DNA of 20,000 nt from an uncultured virus (IMG/VR IMGVR_UViG_3300020413_000007) (IMGVR_UViG_3300020413_000007); one strand, 5' to 3'; shown: positions 1 to 19,931, counted from the stretch's first letter. A program made the numbers and translations. The notes: a model not told the origin generated them from the sequence alone.

Positions 1-2925
1 AAATTCCGTACATATGGTCTCGGAGATTCTGCTTCTGCAAATACTATATTGGTTCCTACAAAAGGAAATAGTGTTAAAACTATTACTGGTTCTGGTACAG
101 ACACAGTTACAAATGCTGCATATGTTCCGTCTACAGGAGTTCTAACATTAACCATTCCTCATCATGGATTATCAACAGGTGATAATATTAAACTTGCAGA
201 TGAATCATTAACATTTAGATGTTCGATGGATAATTATGCTACCGAACATAAGTATCCTAGAAATACTACAATTACACATACAGCTTCTAATGCATCTTAT
301 ATACCTTCTACAGGTACATTGACTATTACAACATCAAAACCTCACAATTTACAAACAGGTGACAGAATTAAAATTGGTGATAATTCATTAACATTTAAGT
401 GTGCTTTAGATAGTTATCAAACTACACATACATATCCAAGATCAACTGATCCATTTAGTGATAAATGGTTGCCTGTAAGTAATATTACAAACACAACATT
501 TACAGTAAATGTTGGTTCATCTACATTAACCACATACACACCAACTGCTGTCGATTATGAACCTAGTACAGGTGACATGACACTGAATATTGGTTCACAT
601 AATATTTCAATTGGTGATCCTATTAGAATTGCTGATGGATCTCTAACATTTACTTGTACATTAGATGGAAATATTGCTGAAAAATCTTATCCAAGAAGTA
701 ATGCTACATATCATTCAATAACAAATGCAGTTTATGATCCTACATCAGGTATTATGACTGTTACTCTTAACAATCATGGATTTATAAAAGGTGAATATGT
801 TAAGTTCTTAGTTAATTCATTACAATTTACATGTACAACTGATGGAAATACAATTCCAAAAACTTATCCTAGACCTACAGATCCAGCATATGATACATGG
901 TTAAAAATTGATAATATAACCACAAATACATTTACAGTCCAAGTTCTTGATACTGTACCTTCAACAAATACAGCAGCACATACTTTTGTTGGTGCAAGTG
1001 TAAATGGTTTGGCGAAGAAAGTTGATCAAGCATATCAAACTGCTCTTTCAGTAATTAAAAGAACTACTGATACTATTACTGTAAATGTTCTTGCTAAAAT
1101 TCCATCCACAAATCTTAGTGTTCATACATTTGTTAAAGCTGCAACTGGTGCTATAAGTTCTGGTGGTGGTTATTTACATAGATTTGTTTCTGCTGCTGCA
1201 GATAGTATAAGTGAAAAGAGAGATTTTGCATCAGAACAATTCCTACAATCAACTGTAGTTGACGAAGATACACTTACAGTTAATGTTGGTATAGTTCTTC
1301 CAAACACTCAGTATACACCAACAACAGGAACATCATATGATCCTGCTAGTGGATTATTAGTTTTAAATCTTGGTGCTGACTATAATGAATTGAAAGTTGG
1401 TAAGAGTGTTATTATTACCGACAATGCACTTAAATTTAAGTGTGCTATGGATAATAATGATTCTATTAAGTCTTATCCGAGACCAGGCTTAGATAAAGCA
1501 TCTGAAAGATCTCTTAAAATTACTGCAAAATCTGGTAATACTATAACCGTAGATGTTGGTGTTGCTGGTACAAACAAAACATTTACACCTAGCATGGCAC
1601 ATTATAATCAGATAACTGGTGATATGGTCATATTTATTGGACAACATGGATTGCGTAAAGATGCAAATGTAGTTTTAGTTAATAATTCACTTACATTCCA
1701 GTGTGCTAAAGATAATTATGTAAGCTTACATACTTATCCTCGTGCTGGTACAGATCCATATGCAAATGAAAAATCAATTGCAATTACAAACGTTGGATCT
1801 ACTGAACATACAGTAACTTCAGCATCATATGTTTCTTCAACTGGTATTGTAACAATTAGTGTTTTAGATCCTAGTAACAAATTTGCAAATGATGATTACA
1901 TCTTAGTTAACGATAATGCTCTTGTATTTACATGTAATTTAGATGGAAATGCAACACAACATCCATATCCTCGTGCTGGATATGATTTACCAAGTAATAA
2001 ATGGTTAAAGATTTCCAGTAAAACACATAACAGTGGTACAAGTACATTTAATATTAATGTTGGATCATCAACATATACTGGTACTCATACATTTGTAGGT
2101 GCTGCTGTTGATGCTTTACAGAGACAAAATGGTGAAATTACAATTAACGTTGGATTTGATTCTGACGCTGGTGATCAATATGAACATAGATTTGTTTCTG
2201 CAACTACAGGTGCAGTGAAGTATACACCAAATTCAACACATACATTCCAATCTGCTGATGCAAATTCAGTTAAGATGCTTGGTGATGCTACACATAAATT
2301 TGTAAGATCAACTACAAATGGTGTTTCAGTTGAAGCAAAAACCTTTGTATCAGTTGGTGATACAGTCATTGATTATGTTGGTCATAATCTCAGTAATACA
2401 ACATTAGTTCCAACTTATGAATCATATGTTGTAAGAGATGAACAGTTAAATTCTAGTGACGTTACATTTGGTACTAAATTATCATCTGGTATTAATACAT
2501 CAGTCGAAACTATTCCAGTTACAGGTACAGGAATGGCTTCCGAAAGTAATATTGGTATCACTATAACATCTGGAAGTGGATCTAGTGCAGTTCTGCAACC
2601 ATTTGTTGTTGATGGAAAAATCACTAAAGTAGTTGTAGAAACTGCTGGAAGTGGATATGATTCTAATGATATTGTATTGACTGTAACTAACGGAGGTGGG
2701 TCTGGTGCTGTACTGGAACCAGTTCTGAATGGATCGGGTGCATTTACTAGTGTGACTGTTACAAATGAGGGTATTGGGTACGATTCTTATAAGGCTTTCA
2801 TAAATAAGGAAGTTATAGAGTATACGAATCATACTACAACAAACCTAAAAGGTGTGACCAGAGGAATAGCGGGTAGTACTGCCGCAACTGGTGCTCAAAA
2901 TGATAAGGTCTATTTTGACTCGTAA
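1..2925 (+). CDS. Large baseplate wedge protein (gp7-like), 3' part; 5'-truncated by the window
   Basis: Frame 1 is open from base 1 (KFRTYGLGDSASANTILVPTK...), so the TTG at 49 is not the real start. Lies directly upstream of gp8, the gp7 position in T4-like cyanophages. Thr/Ser/Gly-rich beta-type sequence with seven YPR-containing repeats and a C-terminal E-x-I-x-Y...L-x-G-x-T-R-G-x-x-G-S-T-A module. Confidence 0.65.
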   Translation, partial: KFRTYGLGDSASANTILVPTKGNSVKTITGSGTDTVTNAAYVPSTGVLTLTIPHHGLSTGDNIKLADESLTFRCSMDNYATEHKYPRNTTITHTASNASYIPSTGTLTITTSKPHNLQTGDRIKIGDNSLTFKCALDSYQTTHTYPRSTDPFSDKWLPVSNITNTTFTVNVGSSTLTTYTPTAVDYEPSTGDMTLNIGSHNISIGDPIRIADGSLTFTCTLDGNIAEKSYPRSNATYHSITNAVYDPTSGIMTVTLNNHGFIKGEYVKFLVNSLQFTCTTDGNTIPKTYPRPTDPAYDTWLKIDNITTNTFTVQVLDTVPSTNTAAHTFVGASVNGLAKKVDQAYQTALSVIKRTTDTITVNVLAKIPSTNLSVHTFVKAATGAISSGGGYLHRFVSAAADSISEKRDFASEQFLQSTVVDEDTLTVNVGIVLPNTQYTPTTGTSYDPASGLLVLNLGADYNELKVGKSVIITDNALKFKCAMDNNDSIKSYPRPGLDKASERSLKITAKSGNTITVDVGVAGTNKTFTPSMAHYNQITGDMVIFIGQHGLRKDANVVLVNNSLTFQCAKDNYVSLHTYPRAGTDPYANEKSIAITNVGSTEHTVTSASYVSSTGIVTISVLDPSNKFANDDYILVNDNALVFTCNLDGNATQHPYPRAGYDLPSNKWLKISSKTHNSGTSTFNINVGSSTYTGTHTFVGAAVDALQRQNGEITINVGFDSDAGDQYEHRFVSATTGAVKYTPNSTHTFQSADANSVKMLGDATHKFVRSTTNGVSVEAKTFVSVGDTVIDYVGHNLSNTTLVPTYESYVVRDEQLNSSDVTFGTKLSSGINTSVETIPVTGTGMASESNIGITITSGSGSSAVLQPFVVDGKITKVVVETAGSGYDSNDIVLTVTNGGGSGAVLEPVLNGSGAFTSVTVTNEGIGYDSYKAFINKEVIEYTNHTTTNLKGVTRGIAGSTAATGAQNDKVYFDS
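106..2325 (+). repeat. Seven copies of a ~100-aa protein repeat (Y.P.TG.LT....H.L..GD.I.I.DNSLTF.C..D.....YPR..DP....L.I...T..T.TVNVG...H.FV.A), nested
   Basis: YPR motifs start at nt 253, 433, 688, 865, 1474, 1735, 1966. Closing H-x-F-[VQ] motifs start at nt 979, 1123, 1177, 2086, 2185, 2239, 2293. Confidence 0.9.
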
Positions 2926-2931
2926 ATACAG

Positions 2932-2939
2932 TATAAATA
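2932..2939 (+). promoter_or_regulatory. T4-type late promoter TATAAATA
   Basis: Exact gp55-sigma late consensus in the gp7-gp8 intergenic gap, about 30 nt upstream of the gp8 ATG. Confidence 0.85.
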
Positions 2940-2971
2940 AAGATAAAGTTAAAAAACATCGGAACAGATAA

Positions 2972-4540
2972 ATGCCATCACTAGTTTCTGACAATTTCAG
3001 AGTATTTGCTGCAGAGCAGTTTATGGAGGCTCTTGAGGAACCTCTAGATTCTTCTGGCAACCCTCTTTCCGACTCTTCCACGGAGGCGTTGAGAGACAGA
3101 AGTAAAGTTTATATTTTTATTGGTCGTTCACAAACTTGGAATGCTGAGAGATACTCAGGTCTAGGTTTTAACGACATTGATACTATACCTTCACCAACGG
3201 ATTCATTTGATGAGTTGAGTGAAATTTATGACGATATGATCGCTATGAAGAGAATTACTCGTAGTGATGTCAATCAAGTTGTAAGAAAAAGAACTTGGAA
3301 GACAAATACTCGTTATGATATGTACAAACATAATTATTCTACTGGTTATCAGTCAGCGACTGGAGCTAATAAATTATATGATTCACAATTCTATGTGATG
3401 AATAGTAATTACGATGTTTATAAGTGTATCTATAATGGTGAAACTCCTGCTAATCCAAATGGAGTAATTTCTACTGTAGAACCAACAGGAACAGCAACTT
3501 CTATTTTTACTACATCTGATACTTACAGATGGAAGTATATGTATACATTAGGTATTAACGATTTTGTTAAGTTTGTTTCTAGTGATTTTATGCCACTTAA
3601 AACTGATTCTAACGTTGTTAGTGCTGCTACATCAGGAGCAATTGATCAACCTTTAGTAAGAAACGTTGGAAGTGGTTTAACTCCAGGCACATATTTCTGT
3701 CCAGTTATAGGTGATTATAGTACACTTGCAGTAGTTACATTTACAGTATCAAGCACTGCTCCGATTGCAAACCAAATTGATCCAAGCACAGTATCAATGT
3801 CTGTTGTTGGTGCTGGATATACTTATGGTACTATTAACCTTGCAGAATGTTATTCAACTTTAGCTGCTGCACAAGCAAGATCTGCTTCACCAACTGATCT
3901 TTCTACTGGTAGTGCTTCTATTGATGCTATAATCTCACCTCCAGATGGACATGGTTCTAATGTTGTGAGAGAACTTGGTGGTTACAGAGTAATGGTTAAT
4001 AAAGCTGTTGAGTTCTTGGATGGTGCTGGTGACGTACCAACTGATATGCAATTTAGAAGATTTGGTCTTGTTTCTGATCCACAAACTCCAGGCAACACTG
4101 ATTTAACATCAAGTACTGCTGCGGTATGTAAAGCAATTAAATTTCCTGCTGCATCATCTGTCAACTACACTATTGGTGAAGTAATTACTCAAGCAACTAC
4201 TGGTGCAAAAGGTAAGGTAATTCATTGGGATTCTGTTAACAAAGTTCTTAGATATTTCCAAAATGAATATACTGCTGCAACTCAATTAACTACTAATCAA
4301 TACAAGTTAGTAGAGTTTAGTGGTGCAAATGCGATTACTGGAGGATTATCTAGTACTGCATTAACTCCTGATACAGCTGCTAGTGGTACTACAACTGTTG
4401 CTGGTAGATCATTTACTACTGGTTACTCTAGTTCAGAGGTTAAAAAATTTAGTGGTTCTATTCTGTACATAGAGAACAGAAAAACAATCATTAGATCTGA
4501 TGACCAAATTGAAGACATTAAACTCGTTATTGAGTTCTGA
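2972..4540 (+). CDS. gp8: Baseplate wedge subunit gp8
   Basis: Characteristic gp8 motifs: N-terminal FRVFAAEQF, YIFIGRSQTW, YDDMIAMKRI, YDMYKHNYS, FYVMNSNYDVYKCIYN, EPTG..YRWKYMYT, SPPDGHG, FRRFGLVSDP, C-terminal SGSILYIENRKTIIRSDDQIEDIKLVIEF. Confidence 0.95.
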   Translation: MPSLVSDNFRVFAAEQFMEALEEPLDSSGNPLSDSSTEALRDRSKVYIFIGRSQTWNAERYSGLGFNDIDTIPSPTDSFDELSEIYDDMIAMKRITRSDVNQVVRKRTWKTNTRYDMYKHNYSTGYQSATGANKLYDSQFYVMNSNYDVYKCIYNGETPANPNGVISTVEPTGTATSIFTTSDTYRWKYMYTLGINDFVKFVSSDFMPLKTDSNVVSAATSGAIDQPLVRNVGSGLTPGTYFCPVIGDYSTLAVVTFTVSSTAPIANQIDPSTVSMSVVGAGYTYGTINLAECYSTLAAAQARSASPTDLSTGSASIDAIISPPDGHGSNVVRELGGYRVMVNKAVEFLDGAGDVPTDMQFRRFGLVSDPQTPGNTDLTSSTAAVCKAIKFPAASSVNYTIGEVITQATTGAKGKVIHWDSVNKVLRYFQNEYTAATQLTTNQYKLVEFSGANAITGGLSSTALTPDTAASGTTTVAGRSFTTGYSSSEVKKFSGSILYIENRKTIIRSDDQIEDIKLVIEF

Positions 4541-4547
4541 TTATACT

Positions 4548-4555
4548 AATAAATA
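4548..4555 (+). promoter_or_regulatory. Late promoter (AATAAATA)
   Basis: NATAAATA in the 36-nt gap, 21 nt upstream of the ATG at 4577. Confidence 0.75.
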
Positions 4556-4576
4556 CTTAAAAGAAGTCCTTCGACA

Positions 4577-7500
4577 ATGCAAAAGACCAATCTACAACTG
4601 GCGCCATACTTTGATGATTTTGATAGTTCCAAAAACTATCAAAAGATTCTATTTAAACCTGGCTATCCAGTGCAGGCGAGAGAACTTACTCAACTGCAAA
4701 CACAGTTACAGAACCAAATAGAGAAATTTGGAAATCATACATTTAAAGATGGTTCTGTAGTAATACCAGGCCAGATTGGTTACGATCTGCAATATGATGC
4801 TGTTTTAGTTCAGAATTTAATTGGTGGTGTAGAAGTAGAAGCAACAAGAACAAGTTTAGTAGGTAAAACTTTAAAAGGATCAACTACTGGTGTAGAGGCA
4901 GAAGTTGTAAATACAATATCAGTTACAACAAGTGAAAAAAATGCGATTACATTATATGTAAAATATACAAAGAGTGGTTCTAGTACAGCTGGTATCCAAT
5001 CAACTAAATTTGGTAATAATGAGACTTTAATTGATACATCAACTAATCTTAATGTTGCTCAAACATATCTTTTAAATGCTACTGAATATACTGGAAGTAT
5101 AGCATACATTACAAATGGCATCTACTATATTCGTGGATTTTTTGTAGAAGTTATAGATCAAAATATTATACTTAATCAATATAGTAACAAACCAACATAT
5201 AAGATTGGTCTAACAGTTACAGAAGAAAAAATAACAAGTGATGAAGATAGTACATTATTCGATAATGCAAATGGATATTCTAATTTTGCTGCTCCAGGCG
5301 CTGATAGATTAAAAATTACTGCATCATTATCAAAAGAGTTGACTAGTTTTTCTGATAATGGTAATTTTATAGAATTATTAAGATTAAAAGATGGTATTTT
5401 AGAAAGAATTGTTGAGACTAGTTTATACAGTGAATTAGAAAAAAATCTTGCTAGAAGAACATATGATGAATCTGGTGATTATACAGTCAGAGATTTTACT
5501 GTTAAGGTAAAAGAAGCTCTTGATAATGGAGATAATGGTGGTATCTATAATCCTAATGAAGTTCTTGCAGATGGTAGAAGTATTTTAGCAAGAGATCCAT
5601 TAGAAACAGATCCAACAAATTCTTTTAATGGTAATAATTATTATGCTTTAGAAGTATCTTCTGGAAAAGCATATGTAAGAGGTTTTGAGATTGATAATGT
5701 TGCTAAAAAATATGTATTAGCTGAAAAAACAAGAGTAACATCTGCTTCAAATAATAAAACTACAAATACAAGTTTTGGATCATATTTTACAATATCTTCT
5801 GCCGTACAAACTGTTACTGCTGGTCAGACTCTTTCTTTAAGAAATAGTAGTAATGCTGTTATTGGTAATGCTCGTGCTGTAGGTGTAGTTCCTGCTAGTA
5901 CTGGTCATTTATTATATGTTGAGGAAGCATTTACATTTACAGATGTTGTAGTTACAGGTGATGCTACTGCATTACAATCTGGTGATTTTATATTTTCTTC
6001 TAGAGGATCTAGAGGTGTAGTTGTATCTACAACTCTTTCTAGTGGTAATACAACACTTAGATTACGTCAAGTTGTTGGTAGATTTGTAAATAATGATGTT
6101 ATAAACAATAGTAGAGATTCAATTACGTTTACAATTTCTAGTCTTACTGATTTTAAATTTACAGATGTTAATAATATAATCAATGGTCTTGGATATGTTG
6201 CAACTGTAACTTCAAATACTGGTCTTAAAACAAAAGGTAAAAATAGTTTTATTAAAATATCAGATTTACCAGTAGCAACAATTAGTGATTATTCATACAC
6301 AAAATTAGCAAGAGTAACTCTTACTGTTCAAAGTGGAGCAGTATCAATTACTGCACCAAATAATTTTACTCCTTTAACAACTGGATACTATATCACTTCA
6401 GCTACTGGAGATCATACAGCAACTGCAACTCTTACTGGAAATACTTTAGTATTATCGTCTATTAGTGGAAATCCTACTAATGGAACTAGTGTAACAATTT
6501 GGTATAAATTAAGAGTTAATAATGTTTCTGTTAGAACTAAGAAAAATAAAACATTCCAATACTTATCAGTCACAAAGAAAAAATCATCAACTGATGTAGT
6601 CTATGGTAATAGGTATGATGATAAAGAAATTAATTTAAGATTTCCAGACGTTTATAAAATACATGCTATTCATGAGGCAGCTGTAAATGGTGTAACTGAT
6701 ACAAATATGTTTGATCGTTTAATTATAAATGATTCAAGTGAGGTTGAAACTGGTGATATTATTCAAAGTGGTTCTTTAAGAGCAAAAATTATATTTAAGA
6801 ATGGTGTAAATCTTCATGTAAAATATTTACAGAATCAAAAATTTACACAAGGAACAAATTTAACTACACAAATTACTATTGTCAATAATCCTACTTTAGT
6901 CGGAAGATTTTTAACTGAAGTTACACATGGTAACTATATCGATATTACAGATAATTATGCTTTAGTTAAAAATGATGTAGAAGATAATTATAGAATTTCT
7001 AAATTATCTAGATTAGGTAATAGATCAACACCATCACAAAAAATTACTATTGTATTTGATTATTTTGAACATGGAAATACTACAAATGATTTTTATGCTA
7101 CAAGTTCATTTAATACTGATGATGATGGAGATATAGAATATACAAATATTCCATATGCATATGATGGAACTCCTTATACTGATATCTTAGATTTCAGAGG
7201 AACCTATACACCAACAACTGCTTCTGGTAGTGGTACTGTAACTGCCCCATATGTTACTAGTAATGGAAAATCAGCATTTGATATTTACGAACAAACCAAG
7301 AGTGCTGCTATAACAGCATATCCAGATGAGTTTGCTACATATGATTTAAGTTACTATACTGCAAGAATTGATAGATTATATCTTAATAAAGAAGGTAAGT
7401 TTGTAATATCACAAGGATCACCAGCAATCAATCCAGTAATACCTGAGTCTGTTTCAGATTCTTTATTAATCAATACTATTTCTATACCAGCATATCTTAG

Positions 7501-10500
7501 AGATGTAAATCAAATTTCTATACAGAAAGAAGATACTAGAAGATATACTATGAAAGATATTGGTGCTATTGAATCTAGAGTGGATAGTATTGAATACTAT
7601 ACAACTTTAAGTTTACTTGAAACTGATACTAACAATATGATGATTCTTGATAGTAGTGGAAATAATAGATTTAAAAATGGATTCTTAGTTGATAACTTTA
7701 AATCTCTTAATTTTACAGAATCTAAAAATCCAGATTTCAATATGTCCATTGATACCACACAAGGTTTGATGAGACCATATCCATATGTTAATAACATAGG
7801 TTTCAAGTGGCTTGAAACTATGGATGGTACTGCAACAAAAGTAGGTGGGTTACAAAAGACTGGTGATTTCTTATCTTTACCATATAAAGAAGAACAATTT
7901 GCTTCTAATCCATATGCAAGTAAGGTAGTTAATTTAAATCCATTTAATGTGTTTACATGGGTAGGAGATTTTAAAATATCACCAGAAAGAGATGTATGGT
8001 TTGATACAAAAAGATCTGCTCCTGAGAATGTACCTCAAGTAGATCTTACAGGACCTATTAAATTCCTTTATGATAGGAGTGGTGCTGATGGTGAGAAATG
8101 GGGTAGTTGGAATAATACTGGTAGTGAAAGAGTAAGTGGTGGTACTGAATTTACTGATAAAAGAACTGGTGTAGAAAACAGTTTTAGTACTGTCACACAG
8201 AATATTGAAGTTGGTGATAGAATTGATGGTATTAAAAATATTGAGTTTGCTAGATCAATTGTAATTGATGCAAAGTCATCAAGAATGAAACCAAATACAA
8301 ATTTATATTTCTTTATTGATGGTGAAGATTATAATGATAGTGTATATCCTAAAATCTTTAGAAATATTACTAGAACTGTAAATAGTACTTCTTTTGTAGT
8401 TGGTGAGAAAGTTAGAATTGAATCACAATCTGATCCAGGCACTAATCAAATTATTGCAGAAGTAGTTGTTGCATCTAAATATGATTCTACTATAACTGCT
8501 AATTATAGTGGTGCATCTACTGTAATCGCAATTGATAATGTAACCACTGTAGATGGTACATTATTAAATCCATCAAGTCCTACAGACAAAGTTAAAATAA
8601 CAGGACTTACAACTGGTGCTGTTGCAGAAGTGGACTTAACTTCTCCTAGAATTTCTACTAACGATGAAGGAACTGTAGACTTCTTTATTTTAGTTCCTCC
8701 AGAAAAATTAGAAACTGGTAAGTCAAGATTAGTAATAACAGATGAAAGCACATCTACAACTGTAGAAGGTGTATCTGATACTAATGCAGTTGCTAATTAT
8801 GATTCAGAAGGAACTTTATTTGAACTAACAAGTTTAAGTATAGATATGCAGATTCCTCAAATTACTGTAACACCTATTGAGGAAACAAGACAAAGATTTA
8901 TACCTGATCCTCCTCCACCTCCACCTAGAAACTGTGACCCATTAGCACAATCATTCTTTGTTGATGCTATTGAAGGTGGAATGTTTATTACATCTATAGA
9001 TTTATATTTCCAATCTAAGGATACAAAAGTTCCTGTAACAATTGATATTCGTACTGTAGAAAATGGATCACCAACACAGACAATTCTTCCATTTAGTGTA
9101 AAAACAATTGAAGCTGCTAATGTATCTGTAAATGCAACTAAAGCAAATACAGTAACTAAGTTTACATTTGATGCTCCAGTATATGTAGCAAATGGTCAAG
9201 AATACGCATTTATTTTAAGATCTAGATCTTTAAATTATAAAGTTTGGGTATCTAGATTAAATCAAGTTGATGTAGATACTAGTCAATTAATTGACAAACA
9301 ACCATATGCAGGGTCATTATACAAATCTCAAAACATGAGTGTCTGGGAACCAGATCAGTTTGAAGATATCAAGTTCAATATTAATAGAGCTAAGTTTACA
9401 ACCAATAGTAAATTAACTGCTCAATTAACAAATGGTATTGTTCCTAGAGTAGATCTTCCAACAGATCCATTGATTTTTACATCTGATTCAACTGATATTA
9501 CTATATTACATCCAAATCATTGTATGCATACAAAACAAAATTTTGTAAATATATCTGGTGTAAAATCAGATGTACCAAATACTAAACTGGTAACTCCATT
9601 AGGAAATGCACAGTTTATAGTTGATACAGCTATTACATTAGCAGATGGTACATTCACACCCACCCAGTTTAATAATACAACAGTAGGAGATAATAATTTT
9701 GGATACATCAAAATTAATGATGAAATTATTGCTTACAAATCAGTAAGTGGTTCTACAATTACAGTTCCTAGTGGTGGTAGAGGTGTTGGTGATACAGTTA
9801 TTGTTTCACATGCTACAAATTCTGTAGTTGAATACTATAGTATTAATGGTATACCTTTAACAGAAATTAATAAAGTACATTCATTAAAAGATGTAATTAG
9901 TATGGATAAATATCAAATTTCTGTTAATTCAAAAGCAAATGAAACAAAACAATCAGGTGCTAGATACATTAAGGCAAGTAGAAACTTACAGTTTGAAAGT
10001 ATTACACCTAGATTAAATGAAATTATATTTTCTGGTACAGAATTAACTACAAGATTAGGTACAACTTCTGGTTCTTCAGTAAGTGAAAAGAATACAGGAA
10101 CTTTCTCAACATTACAAGATGTAAGTCTTGCTAATTTAGAAGTGAATGAATTGGATGCATCCAGTGTTATTCTTTCACCAGAAAACCAAACAGTATACTT
10201 TGGTTCTACTGATTCATTTAAATTTTATGCTGATATGAAGAGTACAGTTGATAACTTAAGTCCGATGTTTAATCTTTCTGGATCATCTGTTATTACTGCA
10301 ATGAATCGTATCAATAGAATTGATAAAACAGATGGAACTGTAGATCTTACTTCTGAACTTAATTCAGAGGGATCATTACATGATTCTGTTTATGTAACTA
10401 AAAAAGTAACTCTAGAAAACTCTTCTACTTCTATCAAAATTTTATTTGATGCAATTAGAAGACAGGGTGTTGATATTAAAGTATTTGCTAAAGTGAAAAG

Positions 10501-10720
10501 AGATGATGAGACAGATGATTTCAACTTATTAGATTACGTTGAAATACCTTCTACAAATTATCCATTCTCACCAGACAAAGAAACATATCGGGCATTTGAA
10601 TATGAAATTACTGGTTTAGTAGGTTTCAAAGAATATGCTATTAAGGTTGTTATGATTGGTAACGATCAATCTAATGTGCCTAAAATAAGAAACTTTAGAG
10701 GAATTGCCCTCGCAGTATAA
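4577..10720 (+). CDS. Large virion structural protein, VrlC-like / DUF4815-type (baseplate or tail associated)
   Basis: 2047 aa. Recognisable motifs: N-terminal PYFDDFDSSKNYQKILFKPGYPVQARELTQLQ, APGADRLKI, LARRTYDESGDY, GKAYVRGFEI, RRYTMKDIG, RFKNGFLVDNF, NPFNVFTWVG, DPLAQSFFV, C-terminal PKIRNFRGIALA. Occupies the usual post-gp8 position in cyanomyoviruses. Confidence 0.85.
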   Translation: MQKTNLQLAPYFDDFDSSKNYQKILFKPGYPVQARELTQLQTQLQNQIEKFGNHTFKDGSVVIPGQIGYDLQYDAVLVQNLIGGVEVEATRTSLVGKTLKGSTTGVEAEVVNTISVTTSEKNAITLYVKYTKSGSSTAGIQSTKFGNNETLIDTSTNLNVAQTYLLNATEYTGSIAYITNGIYYIRGFFVEVIDQNIILNQYSNKPTYKIGLTVTEEKITSDEDSTLFDNANGYSNFAAPGADRLKITASLSKELTSFSDNGNFIELLRLKDGILERIVETSLYSELEKNLARRTYDESGDYTVRDFTVKVKEALDNGDNGGIYNPNEVLADGRSILARDPLETDPTNSFNGNNYYALEVSSGKAYVRGFEIDNVAKKYVLAEKTRVTSASNNKTTNTSFGSYFTISSAVQTVTAGQTLSLRNSSNAVIGNARAVGVVPASTGHLLYVEEAFTFTDVVVTGDATALQSGDFIFSSRGSRGVVVSTTLSSGNTTLRLRQVVGRFVNNDVINNSRDSITFTISSLTDFKFTDVNNIINGLGYVATVTSNTGLKTKGKNSFIKISDLPVATISDYSYTKLARVTLTVQSGAVSITAPNNFTPLTTGYYITSATGDHTATATLTGNTLVLSSISGNPTNGTSVTIWYKLRVNNVSVRTKKNKTFQYLSVTKKKSSTDVVYGNRYDDKEINLRFPDVYKIHAIHEAAVNGVTDTNMFDRLIINDSSEVETGDIIQSGSLRAKIIFKNGVNLHVKYLQNQKFTQGTNLTTQITIVNNPTLVGRFLTEVTHGNYIDITDNYALVKNDVEDNYRISKLSRLGNRSTPSQKITIVFDYFEHGNTTNDFYATSSFNTDDDGDIEYTNIPYAYDGTPYTDILDFRGTYTPTTASGSGTVTAPYVTSNGKSAFDIYEQTKSAAITAYPDEFATYDLSYYTARIDRLYLNKEGKFVISQGSPAINPVIPESVSDSLLINTISIPAYLRDVNQISIQKEDTRRYTMKDIGAIESRVDSIEYYTTLSLLETDTNNMMILDSSGNNRFKNGFLVDNFKSLNFTESKNPDFNMSIDTTQGLMRPYPYVNNIGFKWLETMDGTATKVGGLQKTGDFLSLPYKEEQFASNPYASKVVNLNPFNVFTWVGDFKISPERDVWFDTKRSAPENVPQVDLTGPIKFLYDRSGADGEKWGSWNNTGSERVSGGTEFTDKRTGVENSFSTVTQNIEVGDRIDGIKNIEFARSIVIDAKSSRMKPNTNLYFFIDGEDYNDSVYPKIFRNITRTVNSTSFVVGEKVRIESQSDPGTNQIIAEVVVASKYDSTITANYSGASTVIAIDNVTTVDGTLLNPSSPTDKVKITGLTTGAVAEVDLTSPRISTNDEGTVDFFILVPPEKLETGKSRLVITDESTSTTVEGVSDTNAVANYDSEGTLFELTSLSIDMQIPQITVTPIEETRQRFIPDPPPPPPRNCDPLAQSFFVDAIEGGMFITSIDLYFQSKDTKVPVTIDIRTVENGSPTQTILPFSVKTIEAANVSVNATKANTVTKFTFDAPVYVANGQEYAFILRSRSLNYKVWVSRLNQVDVDTSQLIDKQPYAGSLYKSQNMSVWEPDQFEDIKFNINRAKFTTNSKLTAQLTNGIVPRVDLPTDPLIFTSDSTDITILHPNHCMHTKQNFVNISGVKSDVPNTKLVTPLGNAQFIVDTAITLADGTFTPTQFNNTTVGDNNFGYIKINDEIIAYKSVSGSTITVPSGGRGVGDTVIVSHATNSVVEYYSINGIPLTEINKVHSLKDVISMDKYQISVNSKANETKQSGARYIKASRNLQFESITPRLNEIIFSGTELTTRLGTTSGSSVSEKNTGTFSTLQDVSLANLEVNELDASSVILSPENQTVYFGSTDSFKFYADMKSTVDNLSPMFNLSGSSVITAMNRINRIDKTDGTVDLTSELNSEGSLHDSVYVTKKVTLENSSTSIKILFDAIRRQGVDIKVFAKVKRDDETDDFNLLDYVEIPSTNYPFSPDKETYRAFEYEITGLVGFKEYAIKVVMIGNDQSNVPKIRNFRGIALAV

Positions 10721-10722
10721 TC

Positions 10723-10944
10723 ATGGAAAATCCAGAAGTTGAAGGCCATCCAGATCTCGCAAGGGATTCTGGATCTGGTGCTATAGTTAATAGAAATCCA
10801 TATAGTTATGAACAGTATATGGAAAGTTATAAGAAAAGAATTGAGAAAGAAGATAGAATAGATAATATAGAAAAAAACTTAATTGAAACTAGGAAAGAAA
10901 TAGATACTATTAAGGATCTTATTTTACGGCATATAATGTCATAA
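10723..10944 (+). CDS. Conserved small T4-like cyanophage protein with C-terminal coiled coil
   Basis: 73 aa, VEGHPDLARD..SGAIVN motif followed by heptad-like IDNIEKNLIETRKEIDTIKDLI. Starts 2 nt after the upstream stop. Confidence 0.8.
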   Translation: MENPEVEGHPDLARDSGSGAIVNRNPYSYEQYMESYKKRIEKEDRIDNIEKNLIETRKEIDTIKDLILRHIMS

Positions 10945-10975
10945 ATAGTGATGGGAAACAAATCTCCTATAAATA
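10940..10975 (+). promoter_or_regulatory. Two tandem late promoter motifs (CATAAATA 10940-10947; TATAAATA 10968-10975)
   Basis: Both match NATAAATA in the gap upstream of the ATG at 10997. Confidence 0.75.
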
Positions 10976-10996
10976 TAGTATAAGTGGTAGACCCTA

Positions 10997-11326
10997 ATGG
11001 CAGCAGTTCATAATTTACACATTGATCAAGGTGCTGACTTTACTGTCGAAGTTGGTATATATGATGATAATAATGCGGCTTGGGACCTTACTGGTTATGC
11101 AGTAGCTGCCAAGATTCAAAAATCGTATTATAGTACATCATCAACAAGTTTTGTTGCAACTGTGAGTTCTACCGCATCTGGAACAGTAGTTCTAACCCTT
11201 CTCGACACTGTTACTGCAGCCATGGATCCTGGCAGGTATCTGTATGACGTAGTTGTTACGTCAGCTGGTGGTATAAAAACACGAGTCATAGAAGGAATTG
11301 TTACAATCAACCCTGGCATAACATGA
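10997..11326 (+). CDS. Small virion structural protein (Ig-like beta-sandwich; probable fibre anchor)
   Basis: 109 aa with NLHIDQGADF...DLTGY...IQKSY...G.V.LTL....T..MDPGRYLYDV......TRVIEGIVTINPGIT, a pattern common in cyanophage structural regions. Confidence 0.8.
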   Translation: MAAVHNLHIDQGADFTVEVGIYDDNNAAWDLTGYAVAAKIQKSYYSTSSTSFVATVSSTASGTVVLTLLDTVTAAMDPGRYLYDVVVTSAGGIKTRVIEGIVTINPGIT

Positions 11327-11535
11327 ATACTAAAGTTACTGTTCGGAACACACCTCAAGTCATTACTGTTGCCGCTTCGGCTGGTGCTAGTGGTAGTTTA
11401 GCCACCTTGACTGATGTAAATTTATCTTCTGCGGGCGATGGTGCCGTTCTTCAATATGATGTTACAACTCAAACTTGGATAGCTAGAAACATACTAGAAA
11501 ATTCTGGTTTAACTATCAATGCAGGCTTCTATTAA
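11323..11535 (+). CDS. Small fibre-associated/adaptor protein
   Basis: 70 aa, ATGA overlap with the upstream gene. L..LTDV......DG.VLQYD.....W fibre-type motif, C-terminal INAGFY. Confidence 0.75.
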   Translation: MNTKVTVRNTPQVITVAASAGASGSLATLTDVNLSSAGDGAVLQYDVTTQTWIARNILENSGLTINAGFY

Positions 11536-11557
11536 ATCTTTCACATAGGAACAAAAA

Positions 11558-13690
11558 ATGGCAACTTTTATTAAAGTTAAAAGGTCGAGTACAACACCAA
11601 CCGCAACTCCGAGTAATCTAAGAAACGGTGAATTTGCACATAGTTATGGTGCTGGTACTTATACTGACTTTCAAACTACAAACAACGGTGCATCAAACGT
11701 TACTTCGAGTGGTAAACTCTTCATCGGTCAAGGTACTGAAGATGGATCTGGACATGCTGCAAATATAGATGTAATTGGTGGTAAGTATTTTACTGACATG
11801 TTAGATCATGGTCATGGTACTTTAACTGCTAACTCTGCTTTAATTGTTGACCAATCTAAAAAAGTTGATGAATTAAATGTAGATAATCTTAATTTTAATT
11901 TAAACACAATTTCAACAACAAACAGTAATGGAGATTTAATACTAGATCCAGCTGGAACTGGTTCTGTTAATATTGTTGACGATACTAATCTTGCTTTTGG
12001 TACGGATGAAGATGGTAAGATTGAATATGATGAAGATGGAACTGACAAAGTTCAAGTAACTGGTGCAAACTGGAAATTTAATTGCACAGTTGAGATGGAC
12101 AATATTATTGTTGGGCCTGATAATCCTCATAGTTTTGACATGCCAGATAATAATGCTACAGCTTTAAAAATTCATGAAGGTAGTAATAATTATCTTGTAT
12201 TTACAACAACAAACGGTTCTGAGTTAACTAAATTCAGTACTGCTGCTGTTGATATTGATCTTGATTTGAATGTTGACGGTGGAGATATTACAACTAATGC
12301 AACAACATTTAATTTATTAAATACAAATGCAACTACAGTAAATATGGGTGGTGCTGCTACTCAGATAGAAATTGGTGCTAACACTGGTTCATTTATTGTT
12401 AATAACCCAACAATTGTTGGTAGTCAGACAACACAGAATGTTTTTAATAGCTCTGCAACAACAGTTAATGCTTTTGGTGTTGCAGCTACATTGAATATGG
12501 GTGCTACAAGTGGTACTGCTACAATCAACAACCCAACTGTAGTTGGTACTCAGACTACTCAAAACTTATATAATACAACTGCAACCACAATGAATTTTGC
12601 TGGTGCAGCTACTACTATTAACATGGGTACTAATTCAACTACATTAGACCTTGGTGATATTAGAATTAAAGGAAATACAATTTCTACAGATAGTAACTCT
12701 GCAACAGAACTTGTCATCGACCCATTCCCCGATGCTGGAGATGCTGGTGGTGATGTTATCATTCGTGGTAATCTTCAAGTTGCTGGTACTACAACAACTG
12801 TTAACTCTTCTGAATTATCAGTTAACGATCCTATATTTACAGTTGGTGATACTGTAAGTTCTAAGACTGTTGTTTCAACTGCAGCAAGTGGACAAAACCA
12901 AGTTATAGTTGATAATCCTTCATCTGTTGTTGAAGGTGCAACAATTACTGGTACTGGAATTGCAACATCAACTACTGTATCTAATGTAGAGGTTGAGTTT
13001 AATACTAACGCTGGTGCATCAAGTAACGGACAATTTGGAACCGCTCCTTCTGCTGGAGATGCTATTTACTTCTATGATGGTACTTTATTCTCACAAGTTG
13101 GTACATTTGTATCTCAAACAACTAACGCTGTTAAGATCAATCTAATTGCAAATATTTCTCTTGGATCTGACAATTTCTATGACGGTGGAAGCCTAAGTAG
13201 TGTTGGAACTGGAACTCCTACTGCTAACCAAAAAGTTGGTATTACTAAAGTAAGTACAAAGGTCTTTAAGACAACTACATTTACTCTAAGTAATAACACA
13301 ACATCAAGTATTGCAGTAGATACACAACTTACAATCAGTCAAGCAGTTGACGACAACCTAGACCGTGGTATTCAATTTAAGTATTTAAAATCTAACTCTT
13401 CTAAAGTTGGTTTCTTTGGATACGATGATTCAAATGATGCTTTTGTATTCATCAAGGATGGTTCAAATAATTCTAATCTCTTTAGTGGTACTAGAGGAGA
13501 AGGTTGGTTCAAAACTATTAAGGTAGATGATGGTGTACACAAAGGTATCGCCTATTTTGATTCAGATCTTAAGATAACTAGAACAGTTGCTGCTGGTTCT
13601 GCTGATGTTGACACATCTTTCCAAATATTAACTGCTACATCTAGTGGTGTTCCTACATGGACTACAACTGTAGATGGAGGCACTTATTAA
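11558..13690 (+). CDS. Tail/virion fibre protein
   Basis: 710 aa, AGGA SD upstream. N-terminal MATFIKVKRS...L..GE.A.S.G...KLFIG attachment-type domain, IGGKYFTD, G.V.I.GNLQV.GTTTTVNS....VNDP, DDNLDRGIQF, C-terminal GVPTWTTTVDGGTY. Confidence 0.8.
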   Translation: MATFIKVKRSSTTPTATPSNLRNGEFAHSYGAGTYTDFQTTNNGASNVTSSGKLFIGQGTEDGSGHAANIDVIGGKYFTDMLDHGHGTLTANSALIVDQSKKVDELNVDNLNFNLNTISTTNSNGDLILDPAGTGSVNIVDDTNLAFGTDEDGKIEYDEDGTDKVQVTGANWKFNCTVEMDNIIVGPDNPHSFDMPDNNATALKIHEGSNNYLVFTTTNGSELTKFSTAAVDIDLDLNVDGGDITTNATTFNLLNTNATTVNMGGAATQIEIGANTGSFIVNNPTIVGSQTTQNVFNSSATTVNAFGVAATLNMGATSGTATINNPTVVGTQTTQNLYNTTATTMNFAGAATTINMGTNSTTLDLGDIRIKGNTISTDSNSATELVIDPFPDAGDAGGDVIIRGNLQVAGTTTTVNSSELSVNDPIFTVGDTVSSKTVVSTAASGQNQVIVDNPSSVVEGATITGTGIATSTTVSNVEVEFNTNAGASSNGQFGTAPSAGDAIYFYDGTLFSQVGTFVSQTTNAVKINLIANISLGSDNFYDGGSLSSVGTGTPTANQKVGITKVSTKVFKTTTFTLSNNTTSSIAVDTQLTISQAVDDNLDRGIQFKYLKSNSSKVGFFGYDDSNDAFVFIKDGSNNSNLFSGTRGEGWFKTIKVDDGVHKGIAYFDSDLKITRTVAAGSADVDTSFQILTATSSGVPTWTTTVDGGTY
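12284..12635 (+). repeat. ~3 tandem 42-aa (126-nt) repeats in the fibre shaft
   Basis: NNPTIVGSQTTQN at 12401 and NNPTVVGTQTTQN at 12527 (126-nt period). TT.N..N..ATT.N..G.A....[IM]G occurs three times. Confidence 0.85.
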
Positions 13691-13709
13691 ATTATAAACT
13701 GAGGTTATT

Positions 13710-13883
13710 ATGACACCTGATGAAGCAAATGCACTCATGCAAGTTATGAGTGAAAAAGTAAATCAATTGACTAGAGAAAATATGTTATTTGAGTCAAAAA
13801 TAATTTATTTGACTCAACAATTGAAAAAATTTGAAGATGATAAATCCTCTGAAATCCTAGAACCCGATGGCAAGTCCAAATAG
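13710..13883 (+). CDS. 57-aa coiled-coil protein (not in the ORF track)
   Basis: GAGG SD at 13701 and ATG at 13710: MTPDEANALMQVMSEKVNQLTRENMLFESKIIYLTQQLKKFEDDKSSEILEPDGKSK*. Fills the gap after the fibre gene and overlaps the gp13 start by 17 nt. Confidence 0.8.
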   Translation: MTPDEANALMQVMSEKVNQLTRENMLFESKIIYLTQQLKKFEDDKSSEILEPDGKSK

Positions 13884-14712
13884 TAAAGCCACTCTCAAAG
13901 AATATTGCTTAAGACAGCTTGGTAAACCTGTCATTGAGATTAATGTTGACGATGATCAAGTAGATGATTTGCTTGATGATACTATACAACTTTTCAATGA
14001 GAGGGTTTATGATGGTGTCGAGAGAATGTATTTAAAATACAAACTCACTGAAAATGATATTACAAATGGTGGTGGAGGAAGTGCAAACGCAGGCAGAAAT
14101 GAAACTGTAACTGCTACAGATAATAACGATGGTGCTTCTGGTACTTCTCGTACTCTTAATTTTGAACAAGGAAGAGGATATTTAACATTACCAGACCATA
14201 TCTTAGGTGTTGAAGGAATCAAAAAAGTTTCTAACACTATGGTTAATAATATGTTTGGTTTTAGATATCAGTTTTTTTTAAATGATTTCTATAATTTCTA
14301 TGCATATGATATTCTTAATATGGAAGTTACATTGCAGTATCTAGAAACATTAAATTTTTTAATAGAAGGTAATAAAGACGTTAGATTTAATAAGGTAACA
14401 AATAGACTCTACATTGATATTGATTGGGATTTAGCACAAGCGAATGATTATATTGTTGTAGATTGTTATAGAGCTTTAGACCCTGTGACATTTACTAAAG
14501 TATATAACGAAAGATTTGTAAAAAGATATGCTACTGCTAAAATTAAAAAACAGTGGGGTCAGAATTTAATAAAATTTACTGGTATCAAAATGCCTGGCGG
14601 AGTCGAGTTTAATGGTAGACAAATATATGATGATGCTACTCAAGAATTAAGTACTATTGAGGAACAAATGTTATCAACATATGAAACACCTCCATTAGAC
14701 TTTGTAGGATGA
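13867..14712 (+). CDS. gp13: Neck protein gp13
   Basis: LKEYCLRQLGKPVIEINVDDDQVDD, FNKVTNRLYIDIDW, VKRYATAKIKKQWGQNLIKFTGIKMPGGVEFNGRQIY, C-terminal YETPPLDFVG. Confidence 0.96.
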   Translation: MASPNSKATLKEYCLRQLGKPVIEINVDDDQVDDLLDDTIQLFNERVYDGVERMYLKYKLTENDITNGGGGSANAGRNETVTATDNNDGASGTSRTLNFEQGRGYLTLPDHILGVEGIKKVSNTMVNNMFGFRYQFFLNDFYNFYAYDILNMEVTLQYLETLNFLIEGNKDVRFNKVTNRLYIDIDWDLAQANDYIVVDCYRALDPVTFTKVYNERFVKRYATAKIKKQWGQNLIKFTGIKMPGGVEFNGRQIYDDATQELSTIEEQMLSTYETPPLDFVG

Positions 14713-14713
14713 T

Positions 14714-16546
14714 ATGGCTAAAAACGTATACTTTACTATAGGTACGAAGTCTGAACAAAGACTTTATGAAGACTTGATCATCGAGTCTATGAAAATTTAT
14801 GGTCTTGACGTATATTATCTACCTAGAGAAATGGTAACAACCGATAGGTTGTTTAGAGAAGATACTCTTTCTAAATTTGATGAGAACTATCTCATAGAAA
14901 TGTATCTTACAAACTATGATGGATTTGAAGGTGATGGAACATTACTAACAAAATTTGGTGTAAGAATATCAGAAGAAGCAACATTTATTGTATCAAGACG
15001 TAGATGGGAAGATTTGATACAAGCAAAATCAAACAATCTTGTTTCTGCTGAAAGACCAAATGAAGGAGATGCAATATATTTCCCATTAACAAAACAGTTA
15101 TTCCAAATTAAATTTGTAGAGAATGAAACACCTCTAAGACCTCTTGGAGATGTACCTACATTTACACTCGTTACTGAACTCATGGAGTTTGCTGATGAGA
15201 GACTTGAAACTGGTCTTGCTGAAATTGATAAAATTGCTGCAGAAGCAGCATACTCTATTGTTCATAAAGTCACTAGTGGTATCAAGTACATTTACATTAC
15301 TTCTGCTGGAACTGGATATGGTTCTGGTACAACAGTTACATTTAATACTTTAGCTGGTGCTGTTCCTCCAACATCTATTGTTCCTACAGTTACAAATGGA
15401 TCTATAGCATCAATTGCAATATCAAATCCTGGCAGTGGATATACAACAACTGCTCCAACAGTAACTATTGGTGGCACTGGAACTGGTGCTACAGCACAAG
15501 CAATTCTATCTGCTGGAGGTAATTTTACATTCGGTGAATTTGTATATGGTACAAAGTTTACCGCAGATGTAATTGCATCTAATCCAAATGCTACTTACAA
15601 TTTAACAAACGTATTTACGATTCGTAAAGTAGGAAGTGGATATACTACTGCTCCTCTAGTTACTATAGGAAAACCTGATGCTGTAACTGCAACAGCTACT
15701 ACCTCTTTGTTATCTGGTGCAGTTGATACTATAGCTTTAACATCTGGTGGACAAGGATATCCCGATAACTTAACCAATGTTCCTACTAGTGGTGGTACTG
15801 GTACAGGATTAAAAGTAAATACTACAGCTGTTAATGGAGTTATTACTAGTGTAACAATTCATACTAGTGGTAATGGATATACAGTTGGTGATACCATTAA
15901 TATAGTTCCAAATGGGTTTGGTGGAACTCAAGCAGTAATTACATTATCTACTGTATCTAGTCGTGTATCTTCAGTTGTAATGACTAGTGGTGGTAGTGGA
16001 TACACATCTACACCTACAGTTACATTATCTGCTCCAGAAACATCTGGAGGAACTACAGCTACAGCTACAGCAAATATGAGTGGTGGTGCTGTTGCCTCGA
16101 TTACGGTAACAAATGCTGGTACTGGATATACATCTTCACCCACAGTTACCATTGCTGAACCAACTAAAGTACAAGCACTTGCACAAGCAACAGTAACAAA
16201 TGGAACTATTTCTGCTGTAACTTTAACTACTGCTGGTAATGGTTATGTAAGTAAACCTAGAATCATTATTGCTCCATCTCCTAGTGAACCAAAAGGTAAG
16301 GTTGCAAGATGGGATGTGACAAACAAAGAATTAGAACTTATAGATATAGTAGGAACATTCTCTGATGATGATACTTTGATTGGTGTTGAATCACAATCTG
16401 AAACTGTCATAGATAGTTTCAGTAGTATAGAAAATGAGAACGCATCTAATTCTGAAAACGATTGGTTTGAAACTGAAGGTGATAATTTAATCGATTGGTC
16501 GGAAGGTAATCCATTTGGTGAATTTGGTAATTCTGGAGTATTCTAA
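14714..16546 (+). CDS. gp14: Neck protein gp14 with large repeat insertions
   Basis: N-terminal EQRLYEDLIIESMKIYGLDVYYLPRE, IEMY...DGFEG....LTKFG, RPNEGDAIYFP...LFQIKFVE; C-terminal DWSEGNPFG. At 610 aa it is over twice the size of T4 gp14, owing to eight G-x-G-Y repeats. Confidence 0.93.
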   Translation: MAKNVYFTIGTKSEQRLYEDLIIESMKIYGLDVYYLPREMVTTDRLFREDTLSKFDENYLIEMYLTNYDGFEGDGTLLTKFGVRISEEATFIVSRRRWEDLIQAKSNNLVSAERPNEGDAIYFPLTKQLFQIKFVENETPLRPLGDVPTFTLVTELMEFADERLETGLAEIDKIAAEAAYSIVHKVTSGIKYIYITSAGTGYGSGTTVTFNTLAGAVPPTSIVPTVTNGSIASIAISNPGSGYTTTAPTVTIGGTGTGATAQAILSAGGNFTFGEFVYGTKFTADVIASNPNATYNLTNVFTIRKVGSGYTTAPLVTIGKPDAVTATATTSLLSGAVDTIALTSGGQGYPDNLTNVPTSGGTGTGLKVNTTAVNGVITSVTIHTSGNGYTVGDTINIVPNGFGGTQAVITLSTVSSRVSSVVMTSGGSGYTSTPTVTLSAPETSGGTTATATANMSGGAVASITVTNAGTGYTSSPTVTIAEPTKVQALAQATVTNGTISAVTLTTAGNGYVSKPRIIIAPSPSEPKGKVARWDVTNKELELIDIVGTFSDDDTLIGVESQSETVIDSFSSIENENASNSENDWFETEGDNLIDWSEGNPFGEFGNSGVF

Positions 16547-17610
16547 TGTTAGGAAAACATTTTTATCACGAAATTCTTAGAAAGACTATTATTGGTTTTG
16601 GAACTATATTTAATAATATAGAATTACAAAGAACTGATAATGCTGGGAATGTCGTACAAACAACTAAAGTTCCTTTGAACTATGGCCCAAGAGAAAAGTT
16701 TCTTGCAAGAATAGAGGCGGAACCTTCATTGGATGGTCGTGCTGAAACACAAATTACATTACCTAGAATTTCATTTGAAATGAAAGGTATTAATTATGAT
16801 CCATCTAGAAAGTTAGGCCCCGTACAAATACAAAGATCACAAAAAACTAGTGATACAGAAAAGAGTTACTCTACATACAGTCCTGTACCATATAACTGTG
16901 AATTTGAATTAAACATTTTAAGTAAAAATAACGAAGACTCTGTACAAATATTAGAACAGATTTTACCTTATTTTCAACCGATGTTTAATATTACAATTAA
17001 TTTAATAACATCAATTAGTGAAAAGAAAGATATACCTATAATTTTAAACAATGTTGGAATCTACGATGACTATGAATCAGATATGAGTACAAGAAGAACC
17101 TTGATTCATACTCTTAATTTTACAGCAAAGACATATATGTACGGACCTGTATCTACTGCTGAAATGATTAGGAAGGTTAATGTTGATATTAGTGCTGCAA
17201 TGACAACTGGATCTAGACACGTTAGATACAGTACAGAACCAGCTGCTAAAGTTGATCAGAACAGAGATGGTACATCAATTCCACCTACACAGTTTAATGT
17301 TTCTAGTAATACTATTACATTATCAAGTCATGGATTTGTTACTCAGGATAAGGTTACATACAATCAAGACACATCTGGTACACCTGTTGGTGGATTAACT
17401 GATAAGAATAATTACTATATAATTAAAATTGACAATGATAACTTTAGAGTTGCAAAATCAAAATCTTATGCTAGACAAGGATTTGCAATTGACATTACTG
17501 CACAACCTACAGGTAATGATCATAAGTTCTCTGTAATCAATACATTAGATGATGCATTTATGGATGCAGGCGATGACTTTGGATTCAATGAAAGCTGGAC
17601 TAATTTCTAA
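16546..17610 (+). CDS. gp15: Tail sheath stabiliser / tail terminator gp15
   Basis: MLGKHFYHEILRKTIIGFGTIFNNI, VPLNYGPREKFLAR, TLPRISFE, PVPYN..FEL.I......QILEQILPYFQP, DIPIIL, FTAKTYMYGP, C-terminal DDFGFNE. TAATG overlap with gp14. Confidence 0.96.
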   Translation: MLGKHFYHEILRKTIIGFGTIFNNIELQRTDNAGNVVQTTKVPLNYGPREKFLARIEAEPSLDGRAETQITLPRISFEMKGINYDPSRKLGPVQIQRSQKTSDTEKSYSTYSPVPYNCEFELNILSKNNEDSVQILEQILPYFQPMFNITINLITSISEKKDIPIILNNVGIYDDYESDMSTRRTLIHTLNFTAKTYMYGPVSTAEMIRKVNVDISAAMTTGSRHVRYSTEPAAKVDQNRDGTSIPPTQFNVSSNTITLSSHGFVTQDKVTYNQDTSGTPVGGLTDKNNYYIIKIDNDNFRVAKSKSYARQGFAIDITAQPTGNDHKFSVINTLDDAFMDAGDDFGFNESWTNF

Positions 17611-19663: not shown

Positions 19664-19931
19664 AAAACTGATTACTGTTTTGAGTATTCTAAGTCTTTCT
19701 GCAGCTGTTAAAGCTGAATTAGTAGCAGATTTTACTGATGAAAATTTTGATATGAATGTATTTGCTCAAGAATGGAATCAGGGGTTGAGAGAATGGGAAT
19801 CGGAGAAACGTAGAACCGATCCAGAAACATCTATAAATAAAGCATTAACAGGATTCTGGGAGGAAAATTATGGGAGCGATGATACCCCCAAGCAGGAAGA
19901 GTTGTTACAACTTCCGAGTGACGGAGATTAA
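19656..19931 (+). CDS. Acidic protein with Sec-type signal peptide
   Basis: Start at 19656 (MNKKLITVLSILSLSAAVKA|ELVAD...) gives classic n/h/c regions and an 8-nt overlap with the upstream ORF. The ATG at 19641 is an alternative start. Confidence 0.7.
   Translation: MNKKLITVLSILSLSAAVKAELVADFTDENFDMNVFAQEWNQGLREWESEKRRTDPETSINKALTGFWEENYGSDDTPKQEELLQLPSDGD
19832..19839 (+). promoter_or_regulatory. Late promoter TATAAATA embedded in the upstream CDS
   Basis: Exact consensus 30 nt upstream of the nuclease ATG (19870), followed by GGAGG SD at 19859-19863. Confidence 0.6.

Follow-up and report, generated by a model that had tools for sequence, protein, structure and literature searches.

Phages avoid restriction sites, and methylation that overlaps a site can block its cleavage (e.g. 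Dam/Dcm overlap). Mom-type GNATs are phage DNA modifiers (PMC7824862). Mom of phage Mu (PF25680; PDB 8bv8) is a GNAT-fold enzyme that acts post-replicatively at a short motif, confers broad restriction resistance and modifies N6 of adenine in SAS with Gly-tRNA as donor, as described in a paper that also mentions N4-acetylation of tRNA by TmcA (PMC13219725). Phage C5 methyltransferases paired with TET enzymes (clades I-II of Burke et al. 2021) are described as specific for GpC[C/T], not GpCA, and as present in marine metaviromes (PMC8256090), while the Dpd-type 7-deazaguanine of phage CAjan is reported at GA and GGC and to give resistance to HaeIII (PMC7544227). DUF4338, the domain of Druantia type I DruA, has been termed a GNAT (PMC10853773), and a structural resemblance of Synechococcus phage proteins to DruA has been noted (10.1101/2025.08.05.668817). 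Here we describe, in a 20,000-nucleotide stretch of an uncultured virus (IMG/VR IMGVR_UViG_3300020413_000007; the whole stretch is called the window), restriction-type sites that are kept only beside a particular base, and a DruA-like gene of related phages whose product may write a mark that would protect them. It comes from a linear 72,439-bp virus contig (G000, estimated to be 39% complete), of which the window forms the right-hand end. Its gp13 is ~52% identical to gp13 of S-SKS1 and P-TIM40, and we therefore take G000 to be a T4-like phage related to cyanophages. The sequencing runs containing it are marine.

Exactly 11 CCWGG sites occur in the window, at all 11 positions listed by a first-pass annotation made from the sequence, and, as claimed there, each is an in-frame Pro-Gly pair followed by C. 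CCGG, reported as missing, is indeed absent, as is CCSGG. The remark that the GGC codon is otherwise uncommon also agrees with the counts: genome-wide, 28 of 34 Gly codons after Pro are GGC, against 5.7% elsewhere, and at the genome's GGC share 11 of 11 would arise with a probability of ~2e-13. The proposed constant C after the site describes the window and not the full rule. The contig holds 40 CCWGG; C follows 33 of them, G precedes each of the remaining seven, and the rule that covers all 40 is GCCWGG on at least one strand. Six of the 34 in-frame Pro-Gly pairs use GGT or GGA, each after a codon ending in G. A codon-shuffled null, put forward in the annotation as a check, bore out the avoidance: CCWGG with neither flank (HCCWGGD) was observed 0 times in coding DNA and expected 32.0 ± 3.1 times (range 23-40 over 300 synonymous-codon permutations of the called coding sequence). 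Pro-Gly itself is scarce, with 34 pairs against 66 predicted from amino-acid frequencies, a figure for G000 alone without comparison to relatives.

Other flank-ruled sites were found by scanning palindromes and 5-6-mers of G000. All 16 copies of CTGCAG are flanked (unflanked HCTGCAGD, 0 against 15.0 expected), the same G flank holds for GCGC (unflanked, 1 against 13.1) and CCTGAA (non-G, 1 against 45.7), and the single CCGG of the contig, outside the window, reads GCCGG. Plain restriction-site avoidance is seen as well, GGTACC, TTCGAA, TACGTA and CGCG being wholly absent; here avoidance is also flank-conditional, and the genome would thereby keep a record of the specificity of an unseen shield. 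The flank rule in G000 is real and strong. A codon-pair or tRNA explanation was rejected, as the rule is strand-symmetric and valid outside Pro-Gly; a tRNA-Gly(GCC) match in G000 appeared at a relaxed threshold only and was gone at the default one. A shield by GG/CC steps was also discarded, since CCCWGG without a G/C flank is purged. The first-pass annotation had offered two readings of the pattern. Avoidance of one 7-bp site such as WCCWGGW is excluded, because CTGCAG and the lone CCGG obey the same rule in G000; CCATGG and CTCGAG follow it in other phages. In addition, CCWGG of the class with C before or G after is purged too (observed against expected: G000, 0 and 5.0; G001, 0 and 9.5; S-SSM7, 2 and 62; G045, 3 and 60). 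Support was found for the other reading, an overlapping modification at GCC that shields the sites, and GCT can be added to its context. The methyltransferase of that reading is not supported, none having been detected in complete pattern-bearing genomes.

The same pattern is present in further phages. All 48 CCWGG and all seven CTGCAG are flanked in G001, a 55-kb contig bearing psbA. The cultured phage S-SSM7 has 196 of 206 CCWGG, 27 of 27 CTGCAG and 18 of 21 CCATGG flanked by G, and its exceptions (10 of 10 unflanked CCWGG and 3 of 3 unflanked CCATGG) all overlap GGWCC. For G045 (99% complete), flanked copies amount to 208 of 215 CCWGG, 30 of 30 CTGCAG, 15 of 15 CCATGG and 5 of 5 CCGG. Loci mostly split cleanly into those that obey the rule and those that do not. 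Of 80 gp13 loci, 78 hold at least three sites, and two of these follow the CCWGG rule; both (L001, L004) are close relatives, while other close relatives disobey. A pattern scan for GGC at two conserved Pro-Gly pairs gave 72 loci, and 48 of 71 informative ones hold no unflanked CCWGG, which is not a frequency, as the set was selected; some of them purge CTGCAG as well, others not. GGWCC appears to be a second protective overlap in S-SSM7 (L225, L232-L236) and G045, rescuing CCWGG and CCATGG, not CCGG, and no phage gene accounting for it was found. DSL-LC02 (L464-L467) shows the reverse of S-SSM7, with GGWCC absent from coding DNA and GGSCC three-fold enriched.

S-SSM7 allowed us to narrow down the protective context. 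Its CTCGAG and CTCGTG both occur only after G, the unflanked copies being 0 against 13.6 expected for CTCGAG and 0 against 25 for CTCGTG. CAATTG (0 against 95) and CACGTG (0 against 15.5) are gone entirely, so that GCA does not shield; sites with an internal GCA (ATGCAT, GTGCAC) are gone entirely as well. C before or G after a site gives no rescue. Judged by this footprint, the shielding context would be G-C-pyrimidine (GCY), that is GCC and GCT, not GCA. A separate GCWGC methylation for CTGCAG is unneeded, since GCTCGAG and GCTCGTG show GCT to be enough in S-SSM7. We infer that the mark sits on the C rather than on its paired G, the sequence being compatible with either base.

The candidate writer is gene 173 of S-SSM7 (SSSM7_173), which lies between gp44 and gp62 and matches DruA/DUF4338 (PF14236, E-value 1.4e-11). 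It thus shares its domain with Druantia type I DruA and differs in being a lone gene in a phage replication module; no other Dru gene is annotated in S-SSM7, and none was searched for. The DruA-like proteins comprise 370-380 residues, have PF14236 as their sole Pfam match, also match phrog_19197, and form a phage family of over 6,600 protein clusters. Their genes neighbour gp44, gp62 and regA, with a glycosyltransferase-like gene in one clade. A tRNA-Gly lies a few kb from the DruA-like gene in S-SSM7 and G045, and the gene-negative Bellamy has one too.

Among the best 80 loci around the S-SSM7-type gene, 55 of 79 informative ones, largely kin, obey the CCWGG rule, compared with the 2 of 78 gp13 loci. 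To quantify the association, 28 genomes or long fragments were scored over 48-239 kb each (most 50-80 kb) against a codon-permutation null; G000, G001 and G008 were excluded because the gene's region is unsequenced in them. A signature was called when, for any of five sites with 10 or more unflanked copies expected, fewer than 6% of these remained and two or more flanked copies were present. Of the 13 genomes that carry the DruA-like gene, 10 had the signature, against 0 of the 15 that lack it (p 2.2e-5, Fisher test). Carriers that tolerate CCWGG show the rule at CCGG, with flanked and unflanked counts of 21 and 0 in G046, 16 and 0 in S-CAM9, 5 and 0 in DSL-LC02, 4 and 0 in both Sf-FS3 and S-SCSM2R, and 2 and 0 in both S-T4 and S-CREM1. 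Non-carriers either have no CCGG at all (P-SSM2, P-TIM68, P-TIM40, S-SCSM1, G005) or hold both flanked and unflanked copies (S-SKS1, Bellamy, S-CAM7, G010). GGCC is retained better in carriers (p 0.003). On a gp44 tree of 32 rows, from which AG-345-F15 was omitted as its gp44 is not in the stretch examined, the no-gene label needs seven changes, five of them forced by well-supported branches. GCGC was dropped as a test of the gene link, since avoidance of TGCGCA and CGCG gives the same pattern in gene-negative genomes. HTVC008M (W15) carries two DruA-like paralogues (86533-86973 and 99535-100653), a tRNA-Gly(ACC) call and a partial CCGG shield (22 flanked, 4 unflanked).

A model of the DruA-like protein built from 55 sequences reached a predicted local distance difference test (pLDDT) score of 62. 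Nearly all of its 50 listed structural matches are GNAT-fold acyltransferases, among them Mu Mom (Z 6.5, tied with many; root mean square deviation 3.9, 140 aligned residues), and the model suggests, with middling confidence, a GNAT fold. A sequence search of solved structures gave nothing significant, and Foldseek returned no E-value below 0.001. The candidate would thus share the fold of Mu Mom, while it belongs to PF14236/phrog_19197 and not to PF25680, and its target, as read from the footprint, would be G-C-pyrimidine and not adenine in SAS.

We propose that a phage enzyme modifies G-C-pyrimidine after replication and so blocks host restriction enzymes at G-flanked copies of their sites, and that selection purges only unshielded ones. 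The writer would be the putative GNAT-fold product of the DruA-like gene between gp44 and gp62, acylating N4 of cytosine; this target atom is guessed from two parallels, adenine N6 in Mom and tRNA N4-acetylation by TmcA. As Pro-Gly forces CCNGG, the cheapest escape would be a synonymous change to GGC, which gives a modifiable GCC on the opposite strand, and as each phage would lose the sites of those host enzymes that it encounters, carriers would differ in the motifs that show the rule. From the footprints, a modified DNA with a shield at GCY is likely. The DruA-like GNAT is the best-supported writer of the mark, an assignment that we hold to be about an even call, and for the explanation as a whole, a GCY shield written by this GNAT, we estimate a probability of roughly 0.5. 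More tentatively, the DruA-like phage GNAT family may install an undescribed acylated or aminoacylated cytosine at GCY, which would provide abundant ocean phages with a three-base anti-restriction shield without a methyltransferase; synonymous codons would then be rewritten so that unavoidable sites overlap the mark. No report of the flank rule or of a function of phage DUF4338 was found in the literature, supplements and subscription papers lying outside the scope of the search. On the basis of sequence alone, a DNA modification is thus predicted together with its motif and a candidate enzyme, and cultured phages are at hand for it (S-SSM7, S-CAM9 and S-T4 versus P-SSM2 and P-TIM68). If true, it would give the DUF4338/DruA fold its first function and maybe DNA a new base, and flank-conditional site avoidance would be a general way to read hidden modifications from viral genomes.

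A number of points speak against this explanation. The modified base is deduced from the sequence footprint, and the DruA-like gene is not in the 72 kb of G000, its link to this phage running via clade markers. The signature criterion was set post hoc, the genomes are related with kinship uncorrected, and 6 of the 15 negatives are incomplete. Three of the 13 carriers (S-SM2, S-SRM01, AG-345-O18) have no signature, and the CCWGG rule holds at only three of 75 loci around the G087-type gene copy. G101 and L589-L593 carry the gene yet retain unflanked CCGG, so that the gene by itself does not suffice to produce the footprint. Some GCY-containing words are also missing: S-SSM7 has 0 GCCGG (~59 expected) and 0 GGGCC (48 expected) though both contain GCC, and G000 has 1 GCGC with A/T flanks against 9.9 expected, though this contains GCT. 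Mark-insensitive enzymes or further avoided words could lie behind these gaps. Finally, the model is of middling quality and a Z below 8 shows a common fold only, and the DruA-like profile matches the phage's Mom protein without significance (E-value 0.063).

Five other explanations were weighed against a GCY shield written by the DruA-like GNAT. The GCY context is identical to that of the GpC[C/T] C5 methyltransferases, which marine metaviromes are reported to hold with exactly this specificity (PMC8256090), and such an enzyme, with or without a TET partner, could lie in the missing 60% of G000, ~61% of the phage genome being unseen. We regard this as unlikely, because PF00145 has no match in S-SSM7, G045 and G046 (complete) or in 16 isolate genomes, several of them pattern-bearing, and neither a motif scan nor a Pfam scan of 51 S-SSM7 proteins revealed a C5 methyltransferase, although a very divergent one could escape. 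PF01555 likewise had no real match in S-SSM7 or five other genomes. SSSM7_129 (L235:10353-11057) is a small methyltransferase with an NPPH motif (PF05175) and is not tied to the pattern. Methyltransferases of the host might instead act on progeny DNA at GCY, and at GGWCC. The latter is a classic target of such enzymes, and no phage gene accounting for it was found. However, C5 methyltransferases were found in only 5 of 35 Prochlorococcus/Synechococcus genomes, which are mostly incomplete, and host loci retain unflanked sites, host DNA not following the rule. Phages recorded on the same strain also differ, namely S-SSM7 from Bellamy (WH8109) and S-T4 and S-SCSM2R from S-SKS1 and S-SCSM1 (WH7803), with the reservation that the isolation host may not be the natural one. 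We give this origin of the mark a low probability.

G000 also encodes a Mom-family protein (G000:197-826, L081:197-826; PF25680, E-value 3.8e-35), which might write the mark or a second one. The four long sequences that purge CCWGG (G000, G001, S-SSM7, G045) all have its gene, which G046 and G006 lack. Against such a role, which we consider improbable, all 16 isolates tested lack the gene as G046 does, seven of these with the G-flank signature, and of 58 informative Mom loci only two conform to the CCWGG rule. Nor does the footprint fit the SAS context: the adenine target reported for Mu Mom (PMC13219725) would cover every CCAGG, yet CCAGG, which contains CAG, is purged unless G-flanked, and CCGG has no adenine. 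DruA-like carriers without a Mom gene keep CCWGG, and G014 and G015, with both genes, do not purge it at the loci examined. It is also conceivable that nothing is modified and that host or phage nucleases read longer degenerate sites (WCCWGGW etc.) or cut G-flanked copies poorly. Flanking bases affect cleavage rate in general, and the pattern itself is one of sequence. Purging of the class with C before or G after, the one flank shared by five different sites and exceptions that overlap a second defined motif leave this little chance. Least probable, and by our estimate very much so, is a 7-deazaguanine at the G of RGC, akin to that at GGC in CAjan (PMC7544227), for which it can be said that sequence does not separate C from its paired G. 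The GA/GGC protection of CAjan is not matched, as modified GA would spare CCWGGA, which is purged unless preceded by G. A tRNA-guanine transglycosylase (TGT) matched in 0 of 5 complete genomes, though a divergent DpdA may escape the Pfam TGT profile, and QueC matches in three of the five cover only the first 44-60 profile positions, that of S-SSM7 lying in the annotated NAD synthetase.

The link of the DruA-like gene to G000 was approached through its clade. G008, whose gp13 is 67% identical to that of the window, has 18 flanked and 0 unflanked CCGG; G087, found via a scaffold protein of G008, carries the gene and has 3 flanked and 0 unflanked CCGG in the locus examined. In the wider clade of the window, L584, L585 and L586 all carry the gene, with 3/0, 6/0 and 5/0 flanked/unflanked CCWGG. 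On the gp44 tree, L585 and L586 cluster with G087; their GC content is 32-33%, and their DruA-like gene adjoins a glycosyltransferase-like frame. Clade members with nothing DruA-like between gp44 and gp62 (G006 and the freshwater-type L536-L540) have zero CCGG. From this indirect link we infer that the gene is present in the portion of the G000 phage genome that the contig does not cover. An extension of G000 to the replication module was not obtained, L197 (99% DNA identity) and L186 ending at about the same coordinates. At L570:158-3137, also of the wider clade, a 447-residue frame that is glycosyltransferase-like by eye follows the DruA-like gene, and a 175-residue nuclease-like frame sometimes precedes this gene. 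Neither frame has a PHROGs match, and none of the other long genomes tested contains the 447-residue one.

Table 1 Sites and genes of the window that bear on the flank rule (G000 positions where given)
Feature	Window position	G000 position	Strand	Remark
Baseplate, fibre and neck genes of a T4-like cyanophage (gp8, virion structural protein, gp13, gp15)	1..17610		+	Bear the sites; not the modifier
GCTGCAG	1195..1201	53635	+	PstI-type, G precedes; not in the first-pass annotation
CCAGGC	1483..1488		+	In-frame Pro-Gly; minus strand reads GCC
GCTGCAG	3008..3014	55448	+	PstI-type, G precedes
CCAGGC	3683..3688		+	Pro-Gly, inside gp8-like baseplate wedge gene
CCAGGC	4088..4093		+	Pro-Gly
CCTGGC	4658..4663		+	Conserved Pro-Gly, one of two used in the enrichment scan
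CCAGGC	4766..4771		+	Conserved Pro-Gly, second of two used in the enrichment scan
CCAGGC	5294..5299		+	Pro-Gly; G-flanked GCGC at 5298 overlaps
CCAGGC	8435..8440		+	Pro-Gly
CTGCAGC overlapping GCCATGG	11214..11225	63653, 63659	+	PstI-type, C after; NcoI-type, G before
CCTGGC	11228..11233		+	Pro-Gly
CCTGGC	11312..11317		+	Pro-Gly
CTGCAGC	12879..12885	65318	+	PstI-type, C after
GCCTGGC	14592..14598		+	Within gp13; both strands flanked
GCTGCAG	15236..15242	67676	+	PstI-type, G precedes
CCTGGC	15428..15433		+	Pro-Gly
CTGCAGC	19699..19705	72138	+	PstI-type, C after

Most cyanomyoviruses (L456-L535) show a depletion of AGCT and GGCT, with or without the DruA-like gene, S-CAM7 being an exception but without GGCC; as AGCT depletion is equally strong in gene-negative phages, we rejected it as a methylation scar. 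GATC is wholly absent in G006 (L434-L439), L077, L146 and L149, the last two of which also have no CCWGG, CCGG, GCGC or GGCC over 20 kb. The window further encodes a NifU-like domain (PF01106; 19317-19556), possibly in an auxiliary metabolic gene, and close contigs stop a few hundred bases further on.

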